Assembly: GCA_008632985.1 (NCBI GenBank)
Contig: QPGO01000057.1
Span: forward strand, 1-64,000
Length of the DNA: 64,000 bases
Direction of reading: 5' to 3'
DNA from: Psammoneis japonica
Taxonomy: Eukaryota
In this document: positions 4,251 to 57,039 of the stretch, one piece after another
How the letters are laid out: every line of letters starts with the position of its first letter
How positions within the stretch are numbered: the stretch's first letter is position 1
Notes under the pieces: model-generated
Database searches by the model: none
Told to the model about the DNA's origin: nothing
The model's input: the letters and a program-made list of their open reading frames with translations, nothing else
Position numbers and translations under genes: made by a program

Positions 4251-5680
4251 TGTTTTTGTTTTCGATTCTTTTTAGGATTTCCATTTGCGCCAATGTTTCC
4301 TTTTTGGTTTTTTACAAGATCTTTCCCCTTTCATCCCAAGTGAGGACTGTGGCAACAGATTGCTCTGCCGGATGTCCTTGTGCATGCTCACCGTGAGTCA
4401 CTCGCTTTTTCCAGGCAGTGCATGTCCACCCATTTGTTTTGTTGTTGTGAATTTGTCTCACACAGAAATGTTCAAATCTAAGAATCATCAATCCAATCAC
4501 AGAAACAACTGCTCCAGGACTGTGCTGCACAAGTGAAGTGCAGCGGCCCAGCCCTTTTGCTTTGTTGTGGTTTGTGGTTGTCATCACTTCCTTCTTTCTT
4601 CGGCACAACATGAAAAGATTTTCGAAACTCCGGAGCTCATCGTTGGCATCATGCAGGCTTTTTTGCATTTCGGACCATTGCCGTAGAGATGCACAGGAAT
4701 TGGCAACAATTTGGAAAGTGCCAGTGCCCACCAACTTTCTGCACATGAAATCATGGTGACAGTTCTACAAAGACACACAAAAATGACAGTGATTGACAAA
4801 TTTAGCAATGGTCATGACTCAAAATCTCTGAGAATCCACACTCGTTTTTCACTCACAACTCGTCGTCTCGCACCATGTGCTTGTTGTTTGCCAAGCCGGA
4901 ATGCCATCATTGCCAAAGGATGGCTCGCCCTTCCTCTGGATTGAGACCTTGCATTTGTTTGGCATTCCACAACTCATTTTGCTTGATGGCATGTTGTCTC
5001 TCTTTTTTGACTCATCGTTTGCGGCACGACGTGTTTGTTGTTTGCCAAGCCGGAGCGCAGCAACACCCAAGGATGGCTCGCCCTTCCTCTGGCTCTGATT
5101 GCTTTCTCTTGTTTGGTGTTGCACAACATGTTTTGCTTGCATGAAGTGTTGTCTCCAGGCAGCGCAGGTGTTGCCAGTTGAGTCCGGAGGTCGGGGCAAA
5201 TCAAGTGCGTGTCTCCGGCCTGGAGTCCATGTTGCTCCTGTGTCTTTGACCGCAGGAAGTTGCCTGTTTGCTTGACCCGTCAGGTCATGGCTGTTGAAAC
5301 AGACAGCAGCGTTCGTCTGCGAAGCAGCAAAAGCTCGCCAAGCAGATCACACCGTTGACGGAACGCGGGGTTTGGGGTTCCGTCGCATCAGTGACATGAC
5401 ACGGCAAGTCTTCACTCGCAGGGAGTGTTGATTTAGCACGCGGTTGACTCGCAAGTTTCTCTTGCTGTCTCCGCAGTGCGTCCCCCCTTTTTCTTTTTTT
5501 TTGGGGTGGTTTTCCACCCCGAAAATAGGAAAAAGCTTGAGCTCCATTTTTTGATGGCGCTCTTGAGGCAATGTCACCCTGCGCGACCGATTTCTATCAA
5601 CTTTTGACATTGGCGTGTTTCAAATGTTCGAAACACACTTTGAACATTTGCAACAGAGAAGCAGAAAGACTAAAAGCACC
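2990..5680. repeat. TpA/CpG-depleted (TG/CA-rich) degenerate block 1
   Basis: TA is strongly depleted and CG reduced. Spurious Cys/His-rich ORFs. Contains a ~70 bp imperfect direct repeat (4871-4939 vs 5024-5092). Confidence 0.75.
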
Positions 5681-6093
5681 AGATGGCAATCTACATTTGT
5701 GCGCAATTTATTCCGTGCGCATGTCAATGGACTGCGATGGCGGTCGTAGCATGTTCTCGTTCTCGGCCCTCGTGCTCCATCGTCACGTCAAACACAAGGA
5801 TTGTGGCGTACAGTGCAGCGTACACCGGAGATTTTCAGTCACGTCGCGCTTGTGTACCTTGTAAGATAAGGTGTTGCCAGAAAGCTTTGTTTCGACAGAG
5901 TCTGTCAGAAGTAATTTGTCCGAAGAATGGACAGGTGTATTATCCTCGATTGGATAGAGTGGTTGACCGTTCATATAGCAAAACACAACACAACCTAGAA
6001 ATTAATTGTATGTATCCGAAGCCTTCATTCTACTAAGCAAGTAGAGGTGCCAATCAGGACTCTTAACTCATGAGCGCGTGTGCAAAACTGCCC

Positions 6094-7764
6094 CTACTTG
6101 GACTCTTGTGGTTTGTCCACCCACCCAATAGACCGGTCAATTGCCTTGCCCCACGAATGCTTGAGCTCCGTTCGAGTGTCATCCGATATGTCAGAAGAAA
6201 AGGTACAGTCGTCTTCCCAAAGTTCCTTGATATCATCTAGCGAGTCCCAGACACCGGCTGATAAACCAGCGGCGTAGGCGGCTCCGGCAGCGGTAGTTTC
6301 GAGACTACTTGGGCGAAGGACTTTGGCTCCCAAGATATTGGCCAAGAATTGCGCAAATTCAGAGTTGGCGGCCATGCCGCCATCTACACGAAGTTCCGAA
6401 ACAGGAACTCCCGAGTCAGCGGCCATGGCGTCAAACACCTCGGAGCACTGAAATGCTGCCGCCTCGATTGCTGCTCTTGCAATGTGTGCCTTGGTATGAT
6501 AGGCGGTGAGTCCAGCAATAATTCCACGTGCACTCTCCTCCCAGTGCGGAGCCAGTAAGCCAGCAAAGGCGGGGACAAACCGCACCCCGCCAGCGTCATC
6601 GACGGAAGATGCCAAATCTGCAATATCTTTGGCGCTGTCACCGAACTGCAAGTTATCGCGGAGCCATTGAACAAGTGATCCTGCCATGGCAACAGCACCT
6701 TCAAGAGCGTAAACCGGTGGTTCTCCCTTGATTTGGTAAAAGGGAGTTGCCAGGAGTCCACGTTTTGAAATTTGCGGTTTCTCCTGCGCACCCATATTCA
6801 TCATGAGAAAGGCTCCAGTTCCGAACGTAGCCTTAGCTTCTCCCACTTGAAAGCACGCTTGACCAAACATTGCAGCATGTTGGTCCCCAAGAATAGCTCC
6901 AATGGGAACACCCTCCAACTCTGGGCACGATACTACAGTCCCAAAGTCGCCGCCAACGGAAGGTTCAATGGCTGGCAGCATGGATCTGGGAATATCAAAG
7001 GTGGCGAGAAGCTCGTTGTCCCACTCGAGCGTCGTCAAGTTGCAAAGCAAAGTCCTCGCCGCATTTGTCACATCTGTCACGTGCTTTTCTCCACCCGTGA
7101 GCTTGTACAAGAGCCAAGAATCGATCGTTCCAAAGAGCGCTTGACCGTCACGGGCCTTGCCCTCTAAGCCGTCCACATTGTCAAACATCCAACGCAACTT
7201 GGTCGCCGAAAAGTAGGTAGAAACGGGAAGCCCCGTTTTGGAAAGTAAAGCATCTTTTCCTCCCAGTCTCTTACAGTAGTCATCAACAAGTCCCGCAGTT
7301 CGTCCACAATTCCAAACAACAGCCGGACACAGTGGCTCTCCTGAATCCTTGTCCCACACGACGGTTGTCTCCCTCTGATTGGTAATTCCAATGGACGCGA
7401 CAGAACTGCTCGTAACGTTTGCTTTAGCGAGTGCATCCGAAATACACCGTGCAGAATTGTCCCAGATCTCGGAGGCGTCGTGTTCGACCCATCCAGACTG
7501 AGGATAATACTGTTTGTGCTCGCTCTGAGAAGAGGAGACGGCCTTGCCAAACCTGTCGTACAGAATAAAGCGCGTCGACGAAGTCCCTTGATCAAGGGAT
7601 CCGACGTATTGCTCTGACGAGCCAGCAGAAAAAGATCTCTGCCACTTCGAGCGAAACGTACCAAGACCCCTACCACTGATGAGAGCACGAGCAGCAAGCC
7701 GATTAGACCCGCGAGAAGTCGGGGCTACAAAAAGAGTGTCAGCCAAGAAGAAGGCGGATCGCAT
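6094..7764 (-). CDS. glpK: Glycerol kinase (FGGY family) with probable mitochondrial presequence
   Basis: Motifs DQGTSSTRF, ITNQRET, YFSATKLRW, TDVTNAART, GDQHAAMFGQ, KATFGTG, FVPAFAGL and RVDGG. First ATG at 7764; Arg/Ser-rich N-terminus. Confidence 0.97.
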   Translation of the reverse strand: MRSAFFLADTLFVAPTSRGSNRLAARALISGRGLGTFRSKWQRSFSAGSSEQYVGSLDQGTSSTRFILYDRFGKAVSSSQSEHKQYYPQSGWVEHDASEIWDNSARCISDALAKANVTSSSVASIGITNQRETTVVWDKDSGEPLCPAVVWNCGRTAGLVDDYCKRLGGKDALLSKTGLPVSTYFSATKLRWMFDNVDGLEGKARDGQALFGTIDSWLLYKLTGGEKHVTDVTNAARTLLCNLTTLEWDNELLATFDIPRSMLPAIEPSVGGDFGTVVSCPELEGVPIGAILGDQHAAMFGQACFQVGEAKATFGTGAFLMMNMGAQEKPQISKRGLLATPFYQIKGEPPVYALEGAVAMAGSLVQWLRDNLQFGDSAKDIADLASSVDDAGGVRFVPAFAGLLAPHWEESARGIIAGLTAYHTKAHIARAAIEAAAFQCSEVFDAMAADSGVPVSELRVDGGMAANSEFAQFLANILGAKVLRPSSLETTAAGAAYAAGLSAGVWDSLDDIKELWEDDCTFSSDISDDTRTELKHSWGKAIDRSIGWVDKPQESK

Positions 7765-7994
7765 ACTGAACACTGGAGCCAGCGTTATGTTCTTTGTAAA
7801 AAAACTGTATGGTAATACGGTATTACAGAAGTGTTATGAACAGCAGCAACGACACAACAAATTAGAGTCACCCGCGACACAATAACACAAACAACAAACA
7901 ACACTAACAATAAAAGCAAACACGACGCTCGACGCTGCGGATCGCTATGACGAATCGCCAAAAAATGAGCCGGAATCTTTGAATCCTTCGACTG

Positions 7995-8230
7995 CTACTC
8001 TCGTCTCTGCTCTCTCTCTCTCTCTTGAGTAGAGAGTAGAGAAAGAGAGCTATAGAGTAGAGAGTACTGAAGCTAAAATAGAGGTCTAGCTAGTAGCGAG
8101 AGCGCAGCTGAAGGTAGTAGGCAGGCCTCTCTCTCTACTCTCTCTACTCTCTCTAGAGTAGCTAGCTAGCTAGAGTAGAGCTAGAGTAGTATGCAATTTA
8201 AGTGATTACGTAAACTACTCTAGAGTAGAG
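7995..8230. repeat. Low-complexity (CT)n/(AG)n and CTAG/TAG-rich intergenic island
   Basis: ctctctctc, tagagagtagaga and tagctagctagctagagtag runs. Confidence 0.8.
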
Positions 8231-8539
8231 GCGAAGCAAAGTCTAGCGATTTGGTAAGAATAATGAATGAATATGATAGATTCCAATCAGTTCTAATTAT
8301 TTAGAGAGATGGAGAGCGAACCGAGAAGAGTTTTTGCTGTCTACAAACGAGAGTTCGACTCGGCTCTTCCCACCACCAATCTACAAAGATTGTGCTTGAT
8401 CCAACCAACCGTTGGCACAAAAGGACGAAGTTTTGCTACAAGAAACGATGACGCACTCAGTGATGTTGTAGAGTACAGCAGAGATAAAGTCTCGTACGGA
8501 CTCAAATCCTAGAAGAGGCGGGTTTCCACATCACACTAA

Positions 8540-11310
8540 TCACCATCTTTTAGAGTCGCTGCCACCTGAAACTTCCTGTGAAACATTATGTGATGCATTC
8601 GATTCAGTCAAAGAGTTCAGTATATCTTGACTGCGGCTGTTGCTGCCAGTTGACGTCGGGATCCCAGTCACGTGGACACCTCCTGTGCCGTTGCCTCTTG
8701 ATCTTGAGGACTGGGACAAATTAACAAAATGGTGGTTGTACACCTTGGGGCCAATGATCAAGCACATATTTGACATGGCAAACACCCAGATGAGTAAAAC
8801 ATATACGATATACCTTGCCTCTGACGATTGCGAATACATGATATATATCACGGGTATCGACACGAAGAGAACCTGGAGATGCAACATAATCAAAGCAAAA
8901 ATCCAAGAGGACTCCGAATACTTGCTCTCCACATCTTTTGTTTTCCACGCCATGTATGCCGTGAGGATAGTGGGGATGGCAACAAGAATCAAGAGGGGAA
9001 TCGTTATTCCTAGAATTTTCTCGTGGGTGTGGCACTGACCAATCGACTCCCCTGTAAAGTCATCTATATAATGGCGATCCCAGTCCAAACCACCCATGGC
9101 AGTCCATACCGATAGCAAGATGACAGTTGATAATACGATTGCAATAGACGGCCAAACGACGTGCTTGTACTGTACTCGGGTCCTTCGAAACTGAAGTACC
9201 TTGTTGATACGCCAGAGCTAGGCAAGAAACGAAAACCATATCGTAAGATGTTTCCAACAGCACATTGCGTTGCACGCATATACTTCCTCATACCTTTGTG
9301 AACAGCGCACTGTAGTTTGTGACGTGCCCCATGACCAGAAGCCAAACTACTGCCGTGCAGGCCTTTCCCAAAGCTTCTGTATCCCACCCATAGCTTTCGT
9401 CGTACGACATCATCAGAATTGCCAGCGTCTGAACAAAGCTTCCGAAAGCCAGCAGATACAAAAAAACGGGTTGCGATGCCACCACGACCGATGATTTCCG
9501 ATACAGAAAAACCCAGACAAAAGATGAAAGTATGACAAATTGAGCAATTGCCATAAACGTGAGACCAAATATTCTAACTCCTCTGTCAAGGTAGTTTTGT
9601 TCTGGAATATCGCGCAACAGTATGGGGGGCTGAGGGGTGCCATTTGCGTATACAAACGGGGCGACCTCGATCCAAGAACCGAAATAATCGTCATTGCTTT
9701 CTCGACTTGAAACCATGGACAAAACGAATCTGAATTTCGCAGACGTAAACGCCGGTTAGAGATGGTCAAGCAGTAGCCAAACACAAACAGTGTGGTTGTG
9801 CAGCATTCCCTTACCTGTCAGCGTCATCATCTAGACTCGGAAATAAATTGAATGCACCAATAGTCAAACTGTGAATCGCCCGGCTACCTGGAACATCCAA
9901 TTCATTTCCTCCAAAGATCATATGTCCGGTTGCTCCAGTGAAGTCGACCAATCGCACGCCATCGTTATGGGATTTACCAGAACTGTTTGTTTCGTCATAA
10001 GTAGCATTTCCTAAGCACAGACCCATACCAATAGACATTACGGCATCGTATACGAAACCAGAACCGGCCAAAGGATCGTGGGTCTGGAAATAATCCTTCT
10101 CTGCGAAAAAATATCCTGCGAAACCTTTCGCAATTGGATTGAATGAGTTAACTTGTGCAACAAAAGATTCATTTTGTGCCCTCCATGCTTTCAGAAATCT
10201 ATCTTTTTCAGGATCAAAAGTGAATCCATCCAAATCGCGAAACACAACAGAACCGCGAAGCAACTTTCTCATGTTGGAATTACCAAGTGAAGCCTCATTC
10301 TCAAAGAAGTGAAGTGAATTGGTACCAACGAATGCCCACACGTATTCACCGTTATTCATACCCAGCTCTTCCGCTACGTCTGCTACAATTGGCAACTCAG
10401 TCTCTATTGAGCTGATAACATGGACGATTGTTCTGAAGCCGTTCTGATGCAGCGTCTCCAAGCTACTTCTTATTGATGTGGCAAGATCTCTCGTCACGCT
10501 TTCAATCGGATAAGCGGAACTTTCTATTCTCGCTCCGAGCAAAAGTCCATCAAAAAGAAGCCCTTCTTTTATATGAAGCCCCGTGTCACTCAAGGCGTAC
10601 AGAACCGAAATAAAATGGTGTCTTCCAATGTGTAGCAAGAAGCTGATAACCGCGGACGAAACACTGATCGAAAACCCGGTCACTATGCTTGTGTATGGAG
10701 TATAATAGTCTGCTGCAAGCCGAAAGTCCATCCCACCGTATGCCACAAGCGGTATTTCAGCACTGGAAGCCATCGCACTAAGATCCAAAGCCGGTATATC
10801 ATTTTGCGGCCCAGCGATTGCACAGGGGAACCTACCGCTCTCATCCTTAAGCACATCGAAAACGGACCGGATCGCATTAGCTCCAAAAGTCTGGGTATCA
10901 AAGACTAAAGTCGCAGAGGTATTAAAACGGGATTTGCAATTCTCGTATCTGAAAACCTCGTCGCCTAGTTCTGGAACGACGGAGGTGTCTCTTGCATTAA
11001 AGTGGTTCATCGCCAACTGAGCTGCGGCCATGTGTGAATAGCCCAAACTATTATCGGGATTGTCGATGTATAACGGGTCGTCAACCCCCCTAGAGAGTGC
11101 CACGAATGTCATGAAAAACGGATAAGCAACGTGTCTGGGAACAAGGAACTTGGTTACCAACATCCATCAGCTCTACCAAGACACATACCAAATTGTAAAG
11201 GGGAAAAAATTCCAGAGCGTGCATGAGAATTCTTCCGCAGTTGCTCTCGTGAACCAACACCCATTAAGAATAGCATAGGCCACCAGCGATAGAAATAATA
11301 TTGCAGTCAT
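8540..11310 (-). CDS. Class C (GABA-B-like) GPCR: signal peptide + periplasmic-binding/ANF-type domain + 7TM
   Basis: Four exons join in frame via GT-AG introns at 11090-11188, 9730-9814 and 9218-9293. Motifs DFTGATG, VVASQPVFL, YSALFTK/LWRINKV, KYSESSWI and LIIGPK. Confidence 0.88.
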
Positions 11311-26070: not shown

Positions 26071-26506
26071 GGTTGGGGGACGAGACGACGACGACGACTC
26101 TTTCACTCTTTCACTTGCTAGTAGAGTACGGTAGCTTGTATTTTGTATTCCGAAAGAAAGCGGGTGCGATTTATTTTGGAATTTCAATGGTGTATACGGG
26201 CTTTAAGATTTTCTATGAAAATGCATCTGAAATCAATCACGCTCTCTTTTTACCACCTCCCACCTCCCATGTTGAATGTTGAACAAGCTATGGACTGCGT
26301 TTCATCCTCCTGTTAGCTCAACAGCTCAACAGTCAAATCATAACACGGCTTCGTCTCTCTCTCTCTCTTTCAAAAAGAAAAAAAGATCACCACGGCTAGC
26401 GGCTTTCGTACTAACCCTAATCTCAACAATCGCGACCACTCTAATCACCGATCGCGCGGTGCAGCGCTGGTTGAGCGCATGCCGACATCGATTATCAGGT
26501 CAGGCA

Positions 26507-28297
26507 ATGTCAGATTTAATTCCATTAACGACGCAACCATCGGATAGAAACAGAGGGGGGTTTCGAGGGAGGGGAAGAGGCGGTGGTGGTAGAAGAGGTG
26601 GGTATGGTAGAGGTAGGGGTGGTGGACGACGAGGACCAGGCGGGCGACGCTTTCATTCGCAACCGCGACCTCAACATGATTTCAAAGACGAATTAGAAGA
26701 GCTGGGAGCTCGTTCCGAAGACGCGCTAACAATCGCTATTCAAGGCTGTTGCCATGGTCAGCTGGATGCTATTTACGATCGATTAAGGCGACATGAAGAG
26801 CAACCCGGGGCAAAAAAGGTTGATCTACTGCTTTGCTGCGGAGACTTTCAGTCCTTACGCAATCCTGCCGATTTTCACTCGTTTGCAGTCCCTCCAAAAT
26901 ACCGCGAGATGGGATCCTTTTATCAATACTACTCGGGGGAGAAGAAGGCTCCAGTCACAACCCTATTCATTGGAGGCAATCACTAGGCTTCGCAACCTTT
27001 ACAGGAACTCTCGTATGGTGGCTGGGTGGCACCCAACATCTACTACATGGGCGCTGCTGGAGTACTCAATGTGTGCGGCGTCAAAATTGGTGGTATCAGT
27101 GGTATTTACAAATCGTTTGATCACACTCAGGGGAGATACGAACGTCCACCTTACGACCGTTCCACTGTCCGTAGTGTCTATCACGTTCGAAATATCGACG
27201 TTTATCGAATGAAATGCTTATCGTCTAGTCCAGACATCTTCTTATCACACGATTGGCCACAAGGAATTGAACAATACGGAAATACGTCCGAGCTACTTCG
27301 ACAGAAGCCCTTTTTTCGAGACGAAGTTGCGAGGAACGACTTGGGTAGTCCCTGCAATCGCGAATTGCTTGCCACGCTTAAGCCCAAATGGTGGTTCTCG
27401 GCTCATTTACACGTCAAATTTCGAGCTACCGTGCAGCATCTATCAGGTACCACTGATGCTGAGAAGGAAAGGATGGACAAGGAAGCTGTCAAGCAATTAG
27501 TTCCCTCCCAAGTGAAGAATCAATCGCACTCAAAATCTCCTGAAGCAGAAGCAAGCAACATGGCCGAGCAGACAGAGACGACAACTGAACCAAAGCGTCA
27601 GGAAACGCAATTTCACTCGGTAGAATCGCAGAAATGCATTGACAGTGTGCCGGATTTGACGGATCAAATGACTCAATTTCTTTCTTTGGATAAATGCTTG
27701 CCTCGGCGCCAGCACTTATCAATCCTTCATATTCCTGCAAAGAATACAAATCCAAACTCGGATAAGAAAGTACAACTGGAGTACGACTTGGAATGGCTGG
27801 CAATACTGAAGAAAACGCACAATTTGACAGAAACTAGACGTAGACGCGCTCATGTCCCAGGTCAAGTCACGCGCGTTTCAGAAGAGGAATTGCATTGGGT
27901 CAGGAATAAAGTTGGCAACAGCCTCATCATTCCCGAGAACTTTGAACAAACTGTGCGACCCTTTCAGCCAAATCGTGACCCACCTGGATTTGTGCCTCCT
28001 CCTTTGATGCAAATGGGGAATCCTCAGACAGACTCACTGTTGGAAATGCTTGAGTTGGACCATATCAATACCGTTCCATTCAACCGCAACTTCGAGGTTG
28101 CGTCCGACGACAACGAAATCGATTTAGACGGGGACGAAGCGGCAGAGATTTTTAAGGTCCCACACGATGATAATGCAATAGACCTGGATGACAGTGACGA
28201 GAATGAAATTGACTTGGATGGTAACGAAATTGAGTTGGACGATTCGACGAAAGACTCTGAACAAGGGCAAGACGCTAAGAAACTTCGCATGGAGTAA
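26507..28297 (+). pseudogene. DBR1: RNA lariat debranching enzyme with an in-frame TAG at 26984-26986
   Basis: [41 protein letters not shown] and LDKCLPRR all lie in one frame. RGG-rich N-terminus and acidic NEIDLD-repeat tail. Confidence 0.9.
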
Positions 28298-44700: not shown

Positions 44701-46710
44701 GATGCATGTGCCGTGTTCAGCCACATCCAGCAAATGTTGATTTTCCACAACTGTTTGCCTTTGCAGCCAGACGCTGTGAACTGCTCCACAAGAAAGGCAT
44801 CATTGCCTCAGCATGGGTGCAGAGTTTGAGTGGGAGCCTGCAGTTTGACATCTCATCAGCAGCAGAAGTGCCACAGCAATTTGATCCAAGACTTCACAGC
44901 CAAGCAAGTTCCTGAACGTGTGGGGGTGCACCTTGAAAAGTTGCTCTGGAAGGCCCAGTTCCAACATGGTGATCTCATGTGCCAGTGGCATCTCTTTGCC
45001 TGTCATTGATGGTGAGTCAATCTGCTGCAGGAAGGCACCTCCAATTTTAAGAGACCTTGTGCAACATGCAGCAGCTCTCCAATTCCCAGCCTGCTGCACT
45101 TGTGGGGGGAACACCCAGCCTTCTTCTGAAATGATCTTGGATGTCCAAGGTGTGGCAGGGCTGCCCTGGAAGGGGTTTTCAATCTCCAAACAACATTCTT
45201 TTCTTGCAAGAAATGCAGCTGTCAGTGGGTGCTCAACAGACCACATTGTTCCTCCTGTCAGTGACATCCATGAATCGTCCGCACAGTTGAGATGTCCGCT
45301 CCTGAATTGATCTGCCCATTTCTCAACTTTCTTCTTGCATGCATTGCAGGCACCTGTGCATCAGAGGATCCGTCCATTGCAACCCATGCTCTCCCAAGGT
45401 TTCCCAAGCTTCAGCAACTTCAAGATGATCAACAATCACCCAGTTTCTTTTGTGGCCCAAGATGGAGATGTTCCCTGGTGTGTCCTCAACAGTTTGGTTG
45501 TGCCATCAATCATTTTTCCAATCAAATGCTGCCAGCATCTAGAAGCTTTTTTCTGGGCAAGAGCACCTCCCGTGGCACAAATTCCACCTTCCCAGCAGCA
45601 ATCAGACATGTCTTGAAGACCTGAGACTGCTGCTTTGCAAGTTGCACCCTTGTCCTGGAAAACGCATGGCAGATCTGGATTGTCAACAAACATGTGGCAC
45701 ACATGGTGGAAAACTCCTTGCATGGAAATTAGAGTTTCCACATGAGTGCCACACCCTTCAGCTCTTGGCATGTTGACAACTTGAATGCTCACAATCAAGC
45801 AGCCAGATGGCAGGTGCTGCACCGTGTTGTCCTTGGAAGATGCATTGGGGCAGGATTTTGACAGCTGACACAATGCTGGATCTGCTGCTGAAAAAGCTCT
45901 GATCATTGCATGGACCATGTCCTCTCCTGCTCCATGAAATCTCAAGCAGATGGCTGCAATGGCACACAGAATCCTGACACCACAGTGCATGACTTTGCAT
46001 CTGCACTGTTGATGCCCCCTGGTCTGTGCACTTGATGAAACACATGTCTCCTGTCAAAAACCTTGTTCAAGGCACAAAAATTTGCTTTGTGATGTTTCCA
46101 ACTGCCACACACTTCCCATTGAACAGCCTGGCAGATTTCTGCTTGATTCATGACAAGTGCTCTCCTGCAGTGCTTGTTCATCTGATTGAACATTGCATCA
46201 AACAGAACTGTCATCTGCAGTTTCTTGACATGAGCAGCAGAGCCCATCTTCTTTGGCGTCATTGCATTGATGGCTTTCATCCAGCAGCTCCTCAGGGCAC
46301 ATCTGTGCTTTGCAGGCATGGCTGCCATGCTTTGCAATCAGCAAAGGATGGTCCAAAAGAACTGCTTGATGCCCCTCCTGACCCTGCGGCTCATGCCCAC
46401 CTGAGTTTTTGTTTTGTGTCATGTTGTCCACATCACATCTCTGACAACTGTGCCAGCTTCACAGCTGTTGTTTAGACTTGCCATCTTTTTTCCAGCACCA
46501 GAGCTGGAGTTTTCCCGCGACAGTCAAGATCCATGACTTTCTGCATTTTCCATCTTTTGCCATGAGATCTTGGATCTCCCAAGATTTTTCAACAGCCAAT
46601 GATGTCAGCTGCACTCACAGCCATTGAAAATCTTTTTTTGATCTTTTTGGCTTGGAAAAAACAGCCTGTGGCACTGATGAGCGAAAGGGATGGCTCACAT
46701 CAAAAGCACC
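41745..46710 (-). mobile_element. Decayed non-LTR retrotransposon (RT + RNase H + C-terminal Zn-knuckle; Ambal-like), TpA/CpG-depleted block 4
   Basis: Minus-strand relics in the expected order: SADAKSC, QGQHGAAPAIWL, MFVDNPDL, RLGIGELLHVAQG, LELGLP, VDRSF, IKGHRD, WGKTESPVCPRC and RWAPSLVARLWDMW. Confidence 0.75.
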
Positions 46711-46877
46711 CCTACAATTTCATTTCCGCTCGCATCCACAACATTGTTTCTACAGAAAACACAAAAAAATCGATATTTTGAGAACTTAAGTAGTTTGAGG
46801 TACACCATGCAACTCGCCTCGGGTGGGTGGGCACTTACGGACAGAGGCAACCTTGACGATGTCAACAATTTCAAATT

Positions 46878-49800
46878 TTAACGCCCAGCAAAGGTTGTGA
46901 GGGAACAGACAAGAGGCACTACCTTCGTCGACATTGTTTCTACGATCTTGCGTCCGTTCAAGTCCGGAAGCTCCAGGACGCATCCAAAACCCGTGACGGA
47001 CCCTCCTTGGCGTTGTACAAGCTTGAGGATAGCTCCCGCGGTGGCACCCGTGGCGAGGCAGTCGTCAATAATTACCACTCGAGAATTCGGGAGAACGGAA
47101 CCAGCCACCATTTGGAACGAAGAGGAAGAGTCGTCAGATGGATCACGAATGGTGGCGATGTTGTCCTCATTCCGGGTGTTGCCACGGCCTTCTTTCTCCA
47201 GTCGGCTCATGTTGGAGCCCTCGTAGTCAACTTCCACAACGCGACCTGGTATCTTGCCAGCTTTGCGCACGTGCACCAGAGGAATCTCAAGCAAACTTGC
47301 CACGGGACTGGCAAAGGCAAATCCCAATGCCTCGGGGGCGACAATCGCGTCGGCCGCAATCTTGTGGCGTCGAATCCAATCTACAAAAAGACGTGTGCAC
47401 AATGGCAGCCCAAACGGTTGTAGCAATAGACCACCAACAAGGTCTTTGTACACAATACCAGGCGTGGGTGTATCGTGAATCTGGCGAACACTTAGCTTCA
47501 AAAGCGCAGGTAAAAGATTTTCCTTTACGCATTCCTTGGCCGAACTGATAGTGGAATCGGAGTCGTTCTGGTATACAAAGTCCCAAAAGCAAGCCTCCTG
47601 GCGGTCCGCGTGGCCCTCTCCCGTAGATTTGTCGATTGTCAGGTTTGGGATCCAACCACGAGAACGCTTTGATTCCTCTGTTGCGTCAACCTTGACGAGA
47701 ATGACAAGACGACCCGGCACCTGCCGGGCGTATTCCAGACCGTCACGCATGCCGGTCAAGAGTACAATACCTTGTTTGCATGTTTGAACAGTTTCCAAAA
47801 AGCAATTGGCATCGTAGGAAGGATTGGATGTTTTCTTGGCTTCGTAGAAGTTGGTGAGAGCGACGCGGTGAGATTCCTTGTAGGGGCGGTCTTGCATCAG
47901 CAGTTTGAGATCAACGCCAGGAGTTTCGGCCGCAAAGGCACGCTTCGTTGCGTCACTAATGGAGACGATACAGGCCGCCGTCTTGTCACCAACAAGTTCT
48001 CGGATAGTTTCTTCTGCGACGCGAGCTAGCCAGTCCTTGCCCACAAAACGCCGGCCGCAAAAGATGACAAGCGCACCTCGATTCGCAACCGGTGCATCTT
48101 TGGTGTTATCTGCGCCAGGTCCGCCCAAAAGGGGGCAGCCACAGCTAAGAACATTCATTGGATCACGTTGCCGCTTCATCTTGGCGAGCAGGGAACGTTG
48201 CTCACCAAAGGCCAATTTAGCCAACCGGTGGTCGGAAGGACCTAAATCCGATCCATAGACCCCAGACGAGTACGGCAGAAGCTGGTTCGTGGTCATGTCA
48301 ACCCATCGTGATGTTGCTGACGCGAGATCGAGGTCGCCGTCCGGATAACGGCCAGTAATCACGGCAGCAAACTCCCAGTTGCGGCATCCAAAGGCAGTTT
48401 CTGCGGAAGCGACTTTCTTCACAGCGCCGCCCCCATGAAGAAAGTGAACGTACGACGTTTTGGTTGGCGCAGAGCGCATGGCACTCACGAAGATAGAACC
48501 GCAACGCTTGTCCAGTGAAGGGAACAACAGGCAGCGCTTGACTGATCTCAGCTTCTTGGGGACTTTGGTGCCGGGGGCTACAGTTCGTTCTGCCTCGAAG
48601 TGGCGAGTCATGTACAGCTCTCGGTCGAACAGCTCTGACGGCGTGTACAAACTTGGTTCTTGCTGAAGAGGGGGGTCGGGAGACGCGCAAAGTGCGGGAG
48701 ACGCAACGACAACGTTCTCGACTGCATCGCCAGAAGTATCGAAGAGACTGGTGCCAAAAGCGAGGTCTTTGCAGCTCGACCAAAACAGATATCCGTCCAG
48801 ACACGCCGTGTCGGGTAACAAACAAGCTCCTTCGGCATAGCTTGGTAGAACAAGCCCTTCAGTTTCGGTCATGTTGGAGAATTTGTACAAGGTATCTTTC
48901 GCCGCAATTACCTCAAGCTTGTGGGCCGTCAAAGTTACCTCGAGTACCACTCCAAAATTCGTCCCAGCACCACGAAACGGCAGAAGCTCATCGAGAGTCT
49001 CGGCAACTTGAAGCTCACCGGTGGGACTAATGTACTTAACCCGAATTATGTTGTCGCATGCCAGGCCGTACCTGCGCATAAGATGGTTCAATCCGCCTTG
49101 AAGAATAAGGCCCATACCGACACCTGGACGGTCACCGAGAGGCACCACTAAATTGTATTTCTCGCATTCTTGAGTAATATCTCCCAAGGTCGCTCCTCCA
49201 CCAACCTCAACTGTAGAGGTGTCAGGGTTGACCTTGACGTATTTCCAAAGTCCCATGTCGATGGCAATCGCATCGTTGGCAATGCAGAAAGCTTTGTGTC
49301 CGCCACCGACGACAGAGACTTGCCCGCACCCAAGCGAGCGACGACATGCAGCCTTCAACCCTGCCTTAATCCCGGCGATGGAGTTCGGTTTTAACACAGC
49401 TGCAGGACGCTTATCCCTGACTGCGAAGTTCACTTTGCGCTGACAGTCACCCGTTCCACGAGGTTCGATGGCGATGCAGCCCATGGTCCGCTTGAAGCTG
49501 CGACATTCGCCATGTTCCGGTACCTCACCTCCAGTGTATCGGGAAAGGCGAACCCGTTCTTCGGAGCTAATCTGACTCAAGTCCAGGTCGACATCGAAAA
49601 GCTGGAAGTCATAAAGGATGGACGAAGACTCGAGAAAGTTGCAAAGCTCTCTCAGTGTTCCACCTTTGCTCCATCGATGAATGACAATGAGAATTCCTCC
49701 GGCAGCGACAAAGTTGAGAGAATTACGAAGGAGTTCCTCTTTTGATGCATTGCCATACAGTGAATGACTTCAGAGAACGATGTCGGCCTGGCAACAGGTT

Positions 49801-50912
49801 TCGTCTGGGCGGGTGCTTGTCGAGAAGGCGTGATCTCGGATGGATGAGTTTCCTTCATGCAATCCCAAGCTCGAGGCCGTCGTTTTGAGCCCTTCACACA
49901 GTTCTTTATCTTGCTCAAACGCCGTATAATTGGAAACTGTTTGTTTCGAGCACAATCGTTTCAGGAGTGCACCGTTACCGGCCCCAATATCCAAAATTGA
50001 AACGCCGCCTTTCTTGCGGGCCAATGGTCCGTCTATGTAGTCCTGAATGACACCGGTGATGGCAGAGAATTCCTCTTCAGCGCAAGACTGGTAAAGTATG
50101 TAGTCTTGGGCCTCAGAGGGAGCTGGGACGGACGTTTCAGTCGTTTTGAGTGAAGGTGGAAGGCTCTTCGTCGAAGCGACCCCTGTTGCAGTTTTCTCAC
50201 AGGCTGCACAGAAGTTCTCGTAGTCTGTCAGCTTTGATGGATTCCTACGAAAGGCCTGAAGCTGAAAGTTGTGCCATTCATAGGGGTCGGTTAGAAAGAT
50301 GCCGCATTTTGCGGTCGTTACTGTCTCAGCTTCCGTCTTTTGAACCCCTCGCATCGCCATGCACAAGTGTGTACATTCCATGATGACGGCCACACCTCTT
50401 GGGTCTAAAACTGTTTGGATCCCTTCCATGATTTCCCTTGTCAGCCTCTCTTGCACCTGCAGCCGACGCGCGAAAAGATCCACAATGCGCCCAAGTTTGG
50501 ATAGTCCAATGACTCTGCTGCTCTTGGGAACGTACGCGATGTGCACCTTTCCATAGAAGGGTACGGTGTGATGCTCGCAAAGGGAATGCACGGCAATATT
50601 CCGCTCAACGACCATCTCATCAGACACAGTGTCATCGGGAAAGACTGCATCACCTACCACTTGTTGCACTATTTGATCGTAGCCTTGTGTGAAGAAGGAA
50701 AAGGCCCTAGCAAACCGTTTGGGCGTGTCGACGAGTCCTGGGCGGCGGAAGTCTTCCCCGGGAAGAGTTTCCAAGATCGTGGAGAAGGCTGCGGCGCGAC
50801 GGCTTTCTTCCGGCGACAGGGACGAAGGGTCGCCATCACCATCACTGAAGCCGTCACAAAAACTTGAAGAGGCGTTGCGACGGGAGAAAGCCTCTGAAGC
50901 GTCGATCGGCAT
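46878..50912 (-). CDS. Five-domain fusion enzyme: GTP cyclohydrolase I - SAM methyltransferase - FAD/BBE oxidoreductase - phosphomevalonate-kinase-like - APRT-type PRTase, with in-frame TGA at 49770-49772
   Basis: GCH1: SLCEHH, GLSK, RLQVQERLT, HLCMAMRG. MTase: ILDIGAGNG, DIVL*SHSLY. FAD: VVGGGH, GLACDNI, RGAGTNFGVV, KRQRDPMNVL. P-loop: GRRFVGKDW, DRPYKESHR. PRT: VRKAGKIPG, IIDDCLATGAT. The two predicted ORFs are in the same frame with 63 open codons between them. Confidence 0.88.
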
Positions 50913-51240
50913 GCTGTTAAAATAAAATGATGTGGTACAAAAAATCGAAGAAGATGAATGAATGGGATCTGCTCCGTCCTCGACCAATCAAGCTTCACCT
51001 GAAAATTTGCAAGTACGTGGACATTTTTACTATTCCCGCCACATACTCGGTTCAAAAGCGCAACTTGAAACTGGATCGAACCAACATAGTGCGGCGGCAG
51101 CGCGCTGCTCCCACATCTCACGTATCGGCTGGATGTAGCCGCAACGTGTCCCAGCAACTCCCATACTTGTCGGAGTCCTGTCACGAACTAGAGCAATCGA
51201 ATGATGAGCTTTGCATAGAAAGTAGAAAGGGTGGCCGCCG

Positions 51241-51713
51241 GTAGCTTCCAAACGAGTGCGTTGGCAAAGTGATTGCAGTTTTTGCGAATCAAATTATAGT
51301 CGTCAGGCCCAAAGTCACTTCGAAGTTCTGATATAGCTCTTTGCACTTCTGATTGGCCTCCGTCCAGCATGCCCATTTCAAGTGCCTCCCGGAACTTTGC
51401 TCCGGGTGCTTCTTTTGGTGCACTTTCAAAAACTCCCCCACCACTTGCAAAGCTATATTCGGTACCCATAATCTCTACTCCACTATGATGTAAGCCAAAA
51501 CCAATGACATACAAAGCGTCGTTCGCTGGTGACAAGTCGTATATATTGAGAATTACTTTTGTACCCTGTGAAACACATTGCATCACGTTCAAAAATTCAA
51601 AAGATGAAGCTGAGCTGCGCAGAAATTCAAATTGTCTTGCATCGGTTTCGATTCTCCCTACCGTACCATGCGGGTCCTCCCTCCCTGATAACCACCTCCG
51701 AAACTCATTGTCT
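51241..51713 (-). pseudogene. Truncated duplicate of DeSI (direct repeat copy B)
   Basis: Near-identical to 41093-41565. Identity stops after NCNHFANALVWKL, and the frame runs into unrelated sequence (stop at 51188). Confidence 0.92.
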
Positions 51714-52119
51714 CTATCGATAGGCCGTCGATGCAAGTGTTATGTCGATCGCTTCCTGCCGCTTCTTATTGCCGCTCGCATTGAGCATGGCTCGTCGCTC
51801 GCGTCATTGTGCGTTGTCATGCGCATTGCGCATCAGAGACAGCAAACAGACAGGCACCCGGAGCGGAGCCGGATGCTGATCACAAGCTTGGGATTCCACA
51901 GCACCTTGAAACTGTCGCTCTCTATCATAGGACCCCACTCTCTAGTAGCTCTAGAGAGTATGTTAGCAGAGGGGCCTATTAGTTTCAGTCAATATTGTGT
52001 TCGTCCGCATGTTTTTTTAAATACTTTCTACTCTATCTGCAAGAGTTTACAAGCGTTCTTTTCAATTACTGCGGTAGGTTGTTGGGGATCCCTCCTCACG
52101 TAGCAGAATCAGAGGTGCG

Positions 52120-54425: not shown

Positions 54426-55619
54426 CAAATGAGTGCGCCTTTTTCTGCCGTGTGGTGTGGTGGAAGATGGAGGTTCATGGTGGTGGTGGCGGTGGTGGTG
54501 AGCAGCGCAGCTGTTCTTGTCATGGTGGTCCAATGAAGACAGGCCCTTTTTGCGTGAAACAAAAATGCGCGTCGGCGACGTGACACAAAAATTGACTTTT
54601 TTTGTCACACATGCACCCAGCCAATCGACGATGCAAATGAGAAAGCAACTCGCCATCAACGAGGTTGCTGCCAACAATGCACATCATCAAAAGACTGTGC
54701 TGCATGCATTGCATGGACTTGTGGGGTCTTTCGTTTGAGGAAATTGGTGCGGTGTTCACGACAAAAAGTGTGGATTTGCACGCATTTTGTTGGCTTGAAA
54801 AAAAAAAACAATGGCACGCTGTTGACAAATTGGTTGCCGTTGTCATCAATGAGTGCCACCTCACATGTCATTTGCTTCAAATCCATTCTTTGTTTGGTCC
54901 ACCCACCAGATGTCAATTTTGTGGAGGTAGAATCACATTTCAGGGGACTGTGGGTTGACAATGATTTTTGAAACAATTGCAGGAACATCTTCGACAATCG
55001 TGTTGATTCAGAGACATTTGCAACAGTGACATCAAGAAATGGAAACAACTTGTCCATGAGGCAATGGGCATTTTGGGGGATGACACATGTCTGCATGCCA
55101 ATGGCAAAAGTTGGAAAGCTGTGCCCTGCTTGCACCACCTGTGACGCTGACATTCCGTGCCGCTGGACATTCTGTGGCTGGCTCCTTTGCTGCCTTCAAT
55201 TTGGAGAGACCAAGTCGGAAATTTGAAGGAGAATGAGGGCTGTCATGAGGAGAGCTGGATTGAGAGGAGGAGATGGCAAATGTGCCACTTTTTCAAGGGC
55301 TGATGACAAGGCATTGATCAATTTGTTGAAGCACGACAAACTGTGGTCATGTCCAAATGAAATCCAGCTCTGTTCATGAGACAGAAACTTGGCAAAGTCT
55401 GGCATGCAAGCACAATTTGACACAGGATTTGTCATCTTAGACACACTTTGTAGAGTTTGGTTTTGTGAGCAGCAAACACATTTAGAAAAAATTGCACGCA
55501 ATGCATGTCAACTGGCAGACATGAATGATTGGGCATGCATTGACTGCTGCAGCATGCGCATGTCAGAAACCCACAGCCCAGAAGCACAGCACACTGATGA
55601 TGTCCCCCAAAGCCCATGC

Positions 55620-56000
55620 TGAAGCCTCGTCCCCTTGTTGTGAGCCAAAGCCAACACCTGGGCTGACACCTCATCCTGCCCCCAAGCCAATGCCCTGCCC
55701 TGCCCATGCCCCACACCCAGGCTGATGCCATGCACTCCCAAGCCAACACCATGCTCCACACCTGAGCTGACACCACACCCGATGCCTCACACCTCACACC
55801 ACCCCCAAGCTGACACCATCCCCTGCACCAGGGCTGTTGCCACATTCCCAACACCTTGCACCACTCCCAAGCCAATGTCATGCCCCACACCTGAGACACC
55901 TGAGCTGGCACCACATGCTTCACACCACTCCTGAGCTGGCACCATGCCCCACACCCAAGCCAACACCACACCCAATGCTTCACACTGCTCCCAAGCCAAC
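55620..56000 (+). repeat. Degenerate minisatellite encoding Pro/Thr repeats (PTPKPTP.. / PTPELTP..)
   Basis: Recurring cccaagccaacacc, cacacctgagctg and ccatgccccacacc units. Confidence 0.8.
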
Positions 56001-57039
56001 ATTTTTTGATGGTGGGTGGGGGGCAACTCACAATCAGCCTTCAACATGTGCTCATTGATGGCTTTGACAACTTCGTTGAACTCTGAATCAATGGTGAGAA
56101 GCATGGTGTCAAAGAGGCTTTCATCTTGAGTGCAAATGGAAGTGCTGAATTTGGGTGTGGAATCCCATGAAACCTGTCACAAACAAAGGAAAGACACAGA
56201 TGCCTCTGCCAGTTGTTCTTTTGTGTGCTTGAGACCACAGATTTCTTGGCTGTTGCTGTTGGATGGGGCATTGGAGTTGCAAGATGCATGTGCAGACCAG
56301 CCAAGAGGTTTCTTGAGGTGTTTTCATCCTCTCTTCTTTTCAAGCACTCAGACAATTCCTTGCTGGAAATGGAGGACACAGACAAGACAGTCAAGTTGTC
56401 ATGCAAATGAGATTGAGGCTGATTGCTCTCACTGGTGCTGCAAGATGCAGACTGAGCCTTGTGCTTCTTGGAAGCAGCTTGTGCTGCTTTCTCATTTTTG
56501 TCCCCCAACATCTTTGCTTCACTTGGATGACTGGCACATTTGCTTTGTTTCTTTGGAGGCAATTCAGGCACTTGTGTGTCAACTTTCCATGCAAACACAG
56601 AACAGATCCAGTGCACACAATGAGTGAGGCTGCACTTGTTGTGATGGCAACAACCAATTTGTCAGCACCATGCCTCCAATTCCAAGCCAAAACACAATCC
56701 ATGAAAATCCACACTTTTCTTTGTAAATGTGGCACCGCTTTTGTCAAACAAAGAACCCCACAAGTCCAGATGACAGCCGCGGACTTACAATTTACAATGG
56801 CGCGCATCATTCACAGCAGTGGTGTTTGTGAAGGTGCTGTTTATTGTCTCATTTGTAAGGTCATGTGTCTTCAACAAAAAATCATTTTTTGTGTGAAGAC
56901 ACAGCCACACATTTTGATGTTGTTTTGCAGAAAAATCTGCATCCTTTGTGTGTTGTGTGTTGTTTGTCATGCTTTTGTGCACATGCACATGCTGTGCACT
57001 GTGCTGGCTGCTCTGCTGGTGGTGGCAGACTGCCTTTGC

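Follow-up and report, generated by a model that had tools for sequence, protein, structure and literature searches.

In azacitidine biosynthesis, the GTP cyclohydrolase I (GCH I) AzaE is followed by the phosphoribosyltransferase (PRTase) AzaD, which re-ribosylates the base derived from guanosine triphosphate (GTP); the paper describing this (PMC13749301, in its available part) also refers to ToyD, the GCH I of toyocamycin biosynthesis. The gene described here places a GCH I and a base-accepting PRTase on one polypeptide, as domains of a five-domain fusion protein. It is located at 46878..50912 on the minus strand of a 64,000-nucleotide stretch of DNA from the diatom Psammoneis japonica (assembly GCA_008632985.1, contig QPGO01000057.1, positions 1 to 64,000 of the forward strand), referred to below as the window. 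A first-pass annotation of this DNA had likened the pairing of the two enzymes to bacterial pathways, and the comparison holds for azacitidine and, as cited, for toyocamycin (PMC13749301, available text). As in the azacitidine aza cluster (AzaE, AzaD and the phosphatase AzaG) and with ToyD of toyocamycin/sangivamycin, the common elements are a start from GTP, a GCH I with zinc- and GTP-binding residues and the re-attachment of a free base using 5-phosphoribosyl 1-diphosphate (PRPP), as far as the accessible portion of PMC13749301 describes them. Unlike the fusion, the aza and toyocamycin systems are multi-gene bacterial clusters with ring remodelling, by a cupin dioxygenase and a thiamine pyrophosphate (TPP) decarboxylase or by QueD, QueE and QueC, whereas the fusion has a methyltransferase, a flavin oxidase of the berberine bridge enzyme (BBE) type and a kinase resembling phosphomevalonate kinase (PMVK) on a single eukaryotic polypeptide.

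Fusions in the pterin pathway are also found in eukaryotes, an example being the folate enzyme FolB–FolK–FolP. Another, the 765-aa Logan protein P0020, consists of GCH1, 6-pyruvoyl-tetrahydropterin synthase (PTPS) and a short-chain reductase, and looks like a complete route to tetrahydrobiopterin in a single polypeptide; its GCH1 and that of the window share 53% identity. The diatom protein resembles these fusions in joining a dihydroneopterin enzyme to downstream enzymes. P0020 and the folate fusions, however, combine consecutive steps of biopterin or folate synthesis, while the four downstream domains found here belong to no described pterin pathway. A further point of comparison is asperopterin, a 6-hydroxymethylpterin that is N8-methylated, C7-oxidised and bears a ribofuranose; to our knowledge, asperopterin A is the sole natural product in which 6-hydroxymethylpterin is methylated, ring-oxidised and ribosylated. 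These three tailorings would match methyltransferase, flavin oxidase and phosphoribosyltransferase chemistries acting on the product of FolB (dihydroneopterin aldolase), which is a lead only: the compound is not known from diatoms, and a type I PRTase would be an unusual catalyst of O-ribosylation. Asperopterins A and B of Aspergillus oryzae are described as a pteridine or isoxanthopterin glycoside in a review whose available part reports no biosynthetic genes for them (PMC6208954).

The locus is a diatom nuclear gene with a single exon. The coding region (46878..50912, minus strand) is one frame of 1344 codons running from the ATG at 50912, the first downstream of an in-frame upstream stop, to the TAA at 46878–46880; no intron is apparent from the translation. 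Two open reading frames (ORFs), 49770–50987 and 46878–49580 on the minus strand, share this frame and are separated by one in-frame stop, a TGA. No indel occurs over the 4035 bases of the window copy, and the translation is colinear from end to end with 12 homologues. The first-pass annotation had proposed one gene with five recognisable domains, and Pfam matches on the read-through frame, a methyltransferase fold predicted by AlphaFold and fused homologues all agree with it.

The N-terminal GTP cyclohydrolase I domain (residues 41–212; 50277..50792, minus strand) scores above the gathering threshold of Pfam GTP_cyclohydroI (E 1e-60) and passes the NCBIfam folE equivalog model TIGR00063 (208.4 bits; cut-off 181.6). 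It aligns with solved GCH1 chains of the PDB (E 1e-54), with CEHH, QERLT and H-x-C-M-x-MRG in register. The motifs CEHH (residues 112–115; 50568–50579), QERLT (residues 151–158; 50439–50462) and THLCMAMRGV (50343–50372, with H-L-C at residues 182–184), all on the minus strand, retain the zinc ligands and the guanine-binding Glu; the intactness of CEHH and HLC had been noted earlier and is upheld. The roles of these residues in zinc and GTP binding follow those given for AzaE in the available part of PMC13749301.

The next domain is a class I S-adenosylmethionine-dependent methyltransferase (about residues 267–482; 49467..50114, minus strand), recognised by its AlphaFold-predicted fold and by sub-gathering Pfam matches. 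Motif I, LDIGAGNG, occupies residues 307–314 (49971–49994, minus strand). Class I methyltransferase Pfam models cover about residues 300–424, all below their gathering scores (best E 4e-5); the best, Methyltransf_31, reaches 23.8 bits against a gathering score of 27, and membership of a specific family is not indicated. The substrate class is not assignable, since no Pfam family scores above gathering. An AlphaFold 2 (AF2) model of residues 255–500, built from a 26-row alignment, has a methyltransferase fold with a predicted local distance difference test score (pLDDT) of 90. Its top PDB neighbours are all methyltransferases, the nearest solved fold being human histamine N-methyltransferase (Z 19.1, root-mean-square deviation (rmsd) 3.7, 218 residues aligned; Foldseek E 5e-11), followed by an entry with Z 17.9.

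The central part of the protein is an oxidase domain linked to flavin adenine dinucleotide (FAD), of the BBE/vanillyl-alcohol oxidase (VAO) type (residues 491–922; 48147..49442, minus strand), identified by Pfam FAD_binding_4 and by phmmer against the PDB. FAD_binding_4 matches residues 503–635 (E 2e-17; 64 bits against a gathering score of 26.4). In the phmmer comparison, residues 491–922 align to residues 33–453 of EncM (6e-20), and 6-hydroxy-D-nicotine oxidase is matched at 7e-19. The histidine of GGGH(S/D) is the site of covalent 8-alpha-histidyl FAD; here GGGH is found at residues 536–539 (49293–49307, minus strand) and is invariant in all 13 rows of the homologue alignment. At E <= 0.1 the window protein gives no match to the C-terminal BBE motif PF08031, which homologue P0017 does have and which is weak in several other proteins of this oxidase–kinase–PRTase type.

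The C-terminal part comprises two further domains. The first is a P-loop kinase resembling PMVK (residues 942–1119; 47556..48089, minus strand), with a Pfam P-mevalo_kinase (PF04275) match at residues 951–1058 (E 6e-15; 55.7 bits against a gathering score of 33.8) and the P-loop CGRRFVGKDW at 48030–48059 (minus strand). The second is a type I phosphoribosyltransferase resembling adenine phosphoribosyltransferase (APRT), at residues 1137–1335 (46908..47504, minus strand), supported by Pfam, phmmer against the PDB and AF2/Foldseek; Pribosyltran matches residues 1176–1314 above gathering (E 6e-10), and the PRPP loop VVIIDDCLATGAT lies at residues 1279–1291 (47040–47078, minus strand). According to AF2 (43 rows), residues 940–1344 form a compact kinase–PRT didomain (pLDDT 92, predicted TM-score 0.89), whose best Foldseek matches are APRTs (target-normalised TM 0.91–0.94, rmsd about 2 Å, 26–28% identity). 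The two domains are thus like animal-type PMVK and APRT in their P-loop, in a match to human PMVK (3ch4, phmmer 5e-9), in the PRPP loop and in the APRT fold. They are unlike them in falling below the equivalog cut-offs. The kinase reaches 57.1 bits with the PMVK model TIGR01223 (cut-off 188.15), and the PRT domain fails all APRT models, with 111.5 bits for NF002636 (cut-off 125) and 100.6 for TIGR01090 (cut-off 185.85). The PRT domain also differs in an insertion at about residues 1237–1265 and in its substrate loop, a conserved Y-x-G-S-N replacing the APRT loop. Judged by profile scores, the kinase is PMVK-like rather than a PMVK orthologue, and the PRT domain is likewise APRT-like and not an orthologue.

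The five-domain architecture is almost certainly real. A search with the whole-length protein gave 19 matches, and 7 of the 19 (P0002–P0007 and P0014; 1257–1348 aa, 39–48% identity) carry GCH1, FAD, PMVK and PRT on one protein. The fusion is therefore seen in homologues, and the earlier statement that no fusion bearing GCH1 and a methyltransferase was known is not supported. One of the seven was named automatically by JGI, none appears to be characterised, and literature searches found no paper on the five-domain architecture. The catalytic motifs CEHH, H-x-C-M-x-MRG, QERL, methyltransferase motif I, GGGH, the kinase P-loop G-x-R-x-x-GKD and the PRPP loop DD-x-LA-x-G-x-T are kept in all eight full-length five-domain sequences, the window copy included. 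Metagenome loci L001 and L003 contain uninterrupted ORFs of 1321 and 1348 aa, respectively, the former with all five Pfam domains. An Odontella transcriptome yields the 956-aa peptide P0012, which spans the region from GCH1 to the kinase P-loop, so at least four domains are on one mRNA in Odontella. The protein is intron-less and apparently cytosolic, which makes its intact homologues directly expressible.

Methyltransferase–FAD–kinase–PRT is a recurrent module of its own (the core), present in a red alga and in many other sequences. A HMMER search with residues 382–1344 returned 9663 proteins at E <= 0.001, mostly BBE-like oxidases, and 96 at E <= 1e-30. FAD_binding_4, P-mevalo_kinase and Pribosyltran occur together in 21 of the 27 representative matches scanned with Pfam (E <= 1e-4); the scanned core proteins are typically 1040–1190 aa long and several have an N-terminal methyltransferase. 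In P0019, from the red alga Pyropia, the core lacks GCH1, and the 392-aa P0251 is a stand-alone kinase–PRT didomain. The N-terminal additions vary: GCH1 is found in the clade of the window protein, FolB in P0172 and, in the partial P0194, a piece corresponding to the C-terminal half of a ribokinase-like PfkB kinase.

Two of these arrangements bear on the pathway to which the core may belong. At metagenome locus L004, a core gene without a GCH1 domain (5560–8703, plus strand) and a separate 228-aa GCH1 gene (4263–4949, minus strand; 51% identity to the window GCH1 domain) are divergent, head to head and 610 bp apart. In P0172, a distant relative (1342 aa, an ENA metagenome protein), dihydroneopterin aldolase takes the place of GCH1 before the methyltransferase–FAD–kinase–PRT core, FolB matching residues 113–195 above gathering (E 2e-10) and being followed by FAD, PMVK and PRT. 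The relationships were reconstructed with IQ-TREE (LG+G4, SH-aLRT support only, midpoint root) from 32 rows picked from the matches, a choice that omits 5 of the 27 scanned proteins and all fragments except P0194 and the L004 ORF. All GCH1-fused rows and the split form of L004 constitute one clade of 14 rows (SH-aLRT 99), with L004 nested among the fused rows; P0172 is on a long branch and its placement is unsure. As far as can be judged from domain content and gene order, the core is linked to the dihydroneopterin pathway in three ways: by the GCH1 fusion, by the neighbouring GCH1 gene of L004 and by the FolB fusion of P0172. Because of these three arrangements, the substrate is most likely a GTP-derived, pterin-type base, and pterin-linked chemistry is favoured, with some reserve. 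For the findings on architecture and the TGA taken together with the pterin link, confidence stands about midway.

A series of reactions can be proposed on this basis. The GCH1 domain would convert GTP into 7,8-dihydroneopterin triphosphate, the side chain of which would be processed by enzymes outside the fusion protein. N-methylation of the pterin-type base is proposed for the methyltransferase domain because it resembles histamine N-methyltransferase, and the subsequent oxidation of a C–N or C–OH position for the flavin domain because its nearest relatives are EncM, 6-hydroxy-D-nicotine oxidase and BBE. The APRT-like domain may then attach the base to ribose 5-phosphate from PRPP. PMVK and nucleoside monophosphate (NMP) kinases phosphorylate a phosphate group, and the PMVK-like domain could extend the phosphomonoester to a diphosphate. 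The expected product would be a methylated, oxidised, isoxanthopterin-like pterin ribotide or riboside; this specific order of steps and this product are doubtful. A wider reading, rather unlikely as it stands, would make the core an undescribed synthase of eukaryotes (red algae, diatoms and probably fungi) for new pterin ribotides of the isoxanthopterin type or nucleotide-like cofactors, onto which GCH1 would have been welded in diatoms, so that one polypeptide would commit GTP to the product. All five enzyme families are textbook ones, and their combination has no described product in the literature searched. The Rosetta-stone argument thereby turns an anonymous four-domain family of several eukaryote lineages into a testable hypothesis on pterin metabolism in major marine primary producers.

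Several observations weigh against this assignment. Pfam detects no PTPS, FolB, QueD or phosphatase domain in the polypeptide; since none of its enzymes removes the triphosphate or side chain of dihydroneopterin triphosphate, the pathway is not self-contained as drawn. Histamine N-methyltransferase leads the other small-molecule methyltransferases by no more than about 1 Z unit, and the PRT domain is nearest to adenine PRTs and may simply salvage adenine. The FolB fusion is one cluster (three member sequences, one contig), and a word-index search for a second with P0172 returned P0172 alone. The copy in the window may itself be non-functional, having the TGA and the replacements W1128C and L1214H at conserved positions. 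In the version derived from sequencing reads, one arm, with roughly half the depth, has a frameshift through the loss of 1 bp at 47797, and the invariant Tyr886 is changed to His. The two runs that provide it, X1 and X2, share one sample and count as a single source.

The TGA is codon 381 (49770..49772, minus strand; context gac atc gtt ctc TGA agt cat) and is located in motif II of the methyltransferase, DIVL*SHSLY, at a position occupied by Leu in all 12 aligned homologues. The first-pass annotation had treated it as separating two halves of the protein; it lies within the methyltransferase domain at this conserved Leu position, so it is not a domain separator. X1 and X2 are the only public runs with the locus, no RNA run being listed for it, and were available as Logan contigs of a type guessed to be DNA; these contigs are mosaics from which minor variants have been dropped. 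Both have C at 49770, giving the codon TGG. The TGA is a one-base variant of this assembly, that is, either a null allele or a base error.

The explanation that competes best with a working enzyme is that the locus is decaying in this organism, as a pseudogene or as null alleles, in which case the family would be real and neither copy would make a functional five-domain enzyme. In addition to the stop, the window copy has Cys at position 1128 where nine of nine homologues have Trp, and His at 1214 where five of nine have Leu. At the A5 run at 47797, one arm of the assembly bubble lacks one A and has three T>C changes in both runs, the other arm being identical to the window; the deletion arm accounts for a depth of 24.4 of 52.6 in X1 and 3.8 of 7.7 in X2 and shifts the frame at about codon 1039, in the kinase domain. 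Decay is also consistent with the read version having residues absent from all homologues at 9 of 14 nonsynonymous sites of the TpA class described below, Tyr886 to His among them, and with the synonymous share of the differences of this class (12 of 26), which does not depart from the neutral 32% (p 0.14). Set against it are the lack of indels in the window copy, the intact catalytic motifs of all five domains, the possibility that a window-like haplotype of the sequenced strain has TGG, should the T be a base error, and the nature of the run contigs, mosaics without minor variants. Decay of both copies is, on balance, rather unlikely.

The differences between the window and the reads have a peculiar distribution. 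Over 46700–51200, 26 of the 34 base differences from the X1 and X2 contigs are changes from TpA in the window to CpA or TpG in the reads, with none in reverse (2^-26 under symmetry); in this class, the T of a 5'-TA-3' on either strand is read as C. Within the coding region it affects 26 of 208 bases (104 TpA dinucleotides), against 7 of the 3827 other bases, a 68-fold rate. X1 and X2 share a sample and still differ from each other at nine sites, eight of them of the TpA class. Of the 14 nonsynonymous sites, 13 have a window residue that is also seen in homologues and 5 a read residue that is; the derived state is therefore that of the reads rather than of the window. The read version has Cys at three conserved Tyr/Phe positions in addition to the His at 886. 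The difference at the TGA itself is outside this class. The pattern could be due to hypermutation of one haplotype or paralogue, to base modification or to an artefact. Conversion of the bisulfite type and repeat-induced point mutation (RIP) act in the wrong direction, given that the TpA state of the window is the conserved one, and RNA editing fits poorly, as the contigs extend through intergenic DNA and come from a run in which one contig reaches 315 kb. With regard to base modification, a literature search on 5-hydroxymethyluracil in diatoms gave, in the available parts of the sources, papers on dinoflagellates only. Downstream of the gene, below 46701, the X1 contig over the 3' end runs into sequence absent from the window, so that the region immediately 3' of the gene either differs in structure or is a flank specific to a paralogue or haplotype.

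As regards function, the pterin proposal has to be compared with an arrangement lacking any linear pathway, in which the fusion would only co-regulate GCH1 for folate or biopterin with adenine salvage (from adenine through AMP to ADP), and the two remaining domains, methyltransferase and oxidase, would act on an unrelated substrate. PMVK is a member of the NMP-kinase fold, kinase–PRT fusions for nucleotide salvage are known (uridine kinase–uracil phosphoribosyltransferase), and P0251 stands alone as such a didomain; the closeness of the PRT domain to true adenine PRTs, both in its NF002636 score and in its fold, points the same way. Nevertheless, the four-domain order is kept across deep lineages, the dihydroneopterin enzymes are tied to the core by three different genomic arrangements, and the PRT domain, with its Y-x-G-S-N loop and insertion, fails every APRT equivalog cut-off. 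Mere co-regulation is accordingly considered distinctly improbable.

A GTP-derived nucleoside other than a pterin, of the 7-deazapurine or triazine type, for which GCH1 would supply a ring-opened or rearranged base, is still less probable and would be surprising. The combination of GCH I with a PRTase is a signature of the toyocamycin and azacitidine pathways, and in the latter a free triaminopyrimidine is released by AzaE, a GCH I that shares the conserved zinc and GTP residues (PMC13749301, available part). The ring-remodelling enzymes of these pathways (QueD, QueE and QueC, or a cupin dioxygenase and a decarboxylase), however, were detected by Pfam neither in the polypeptide nor in the 29 large ORFs of the window. 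The GCH1 domain, moreover, passes the canonical folE equivalog model, and the FolB fusion of P0172 points to dihydroneopterin as an intermediate. The first-pass annotation had envisaged a methylated, oxidised and ribosylated metabolite derived from GTP; genomic association would narrow this putative product towards a pterin.

The TGA of codon 381 is almost certainly not programmed. That it is decoded, by programmed read-through, as selenocysteine or under a nuclear code in which TGA specifies an amino acid, has a negligible chance: the 963 codons after it are open and colinear with homologues, but these have Leu, not Cys or Trp, at this position, and the run contigs give TGG. The simple read-through assumed by the first-pass annotation fails on the same two observations. 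A selenoprotein or TGA-recoded gene was rejected on the conserved Leu (neither Cys nor selenocysteine), the TGG of the reads and the lack of a selenocysteine insertion sequence (SECIS), an Rfam scan of 45000–52000 at E <= 1 having returned neither this nor any other match. An intron around the TGA was discarded in view of the colinear homologue alignment, which has no insertion there. A variant genetic code was also considered, as ignoring TGA raises the number of ORFs of at least 200 aa from 34 to 146. The cause of this rise is the depletion of TpA, as a result of which TAA and TAG are scarce in every frame: the window contains 386 TAA, 401 TAG and 1299 TGA triplets, its TpA observed/expected ratio is 0.41 (depleted) and that of CpA/TpG is 1.34 (enriched).

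A second interrupted conserved gene is found in the same window. The DBR1 gene (26276–28297, plus strand) has an in-frame TAG at 26984–26986, exactly at the Glu of the GGNH-E metallophosphoesterase motif. The window DBR1 aligns colinearly to solved DBR1 (E 8e-64), so the TAG is a nonsense substitution and not an intron. Since it is a TAG at a Glu position, no single reassignment covers both stops. The presence of two such substitutions at conserved positions in one 64-kb window argues for null alleles or base errors, not for recoding, and in-frame stops of this assembly should be treated as variants or errors. A similar pair of ORFs is located at 55432–56661 (minus strand), each of about 200 aa and in a common frame split by one TGA. 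The pair is of low complexity, rich in Trp, Gly and Cys, without Pfam matches and probably not coding.

The window is nuclear DNA of a eukaryote, and its other large ORFs include, besides the lariat debranching enzyme DBR1, a family-3 G-protein-coupled receptor, a protein kinase and C2CD5-like proteins. The host is a diatom that has no near relative in the protein collection searched: the closest counterparts of a glycerol kinase encoded nearby are those of Odontella aurita (67% identity) and Eucampia antarctica (61%), both diatoms, in agreement with the earlier suggestion that the host is an alga.

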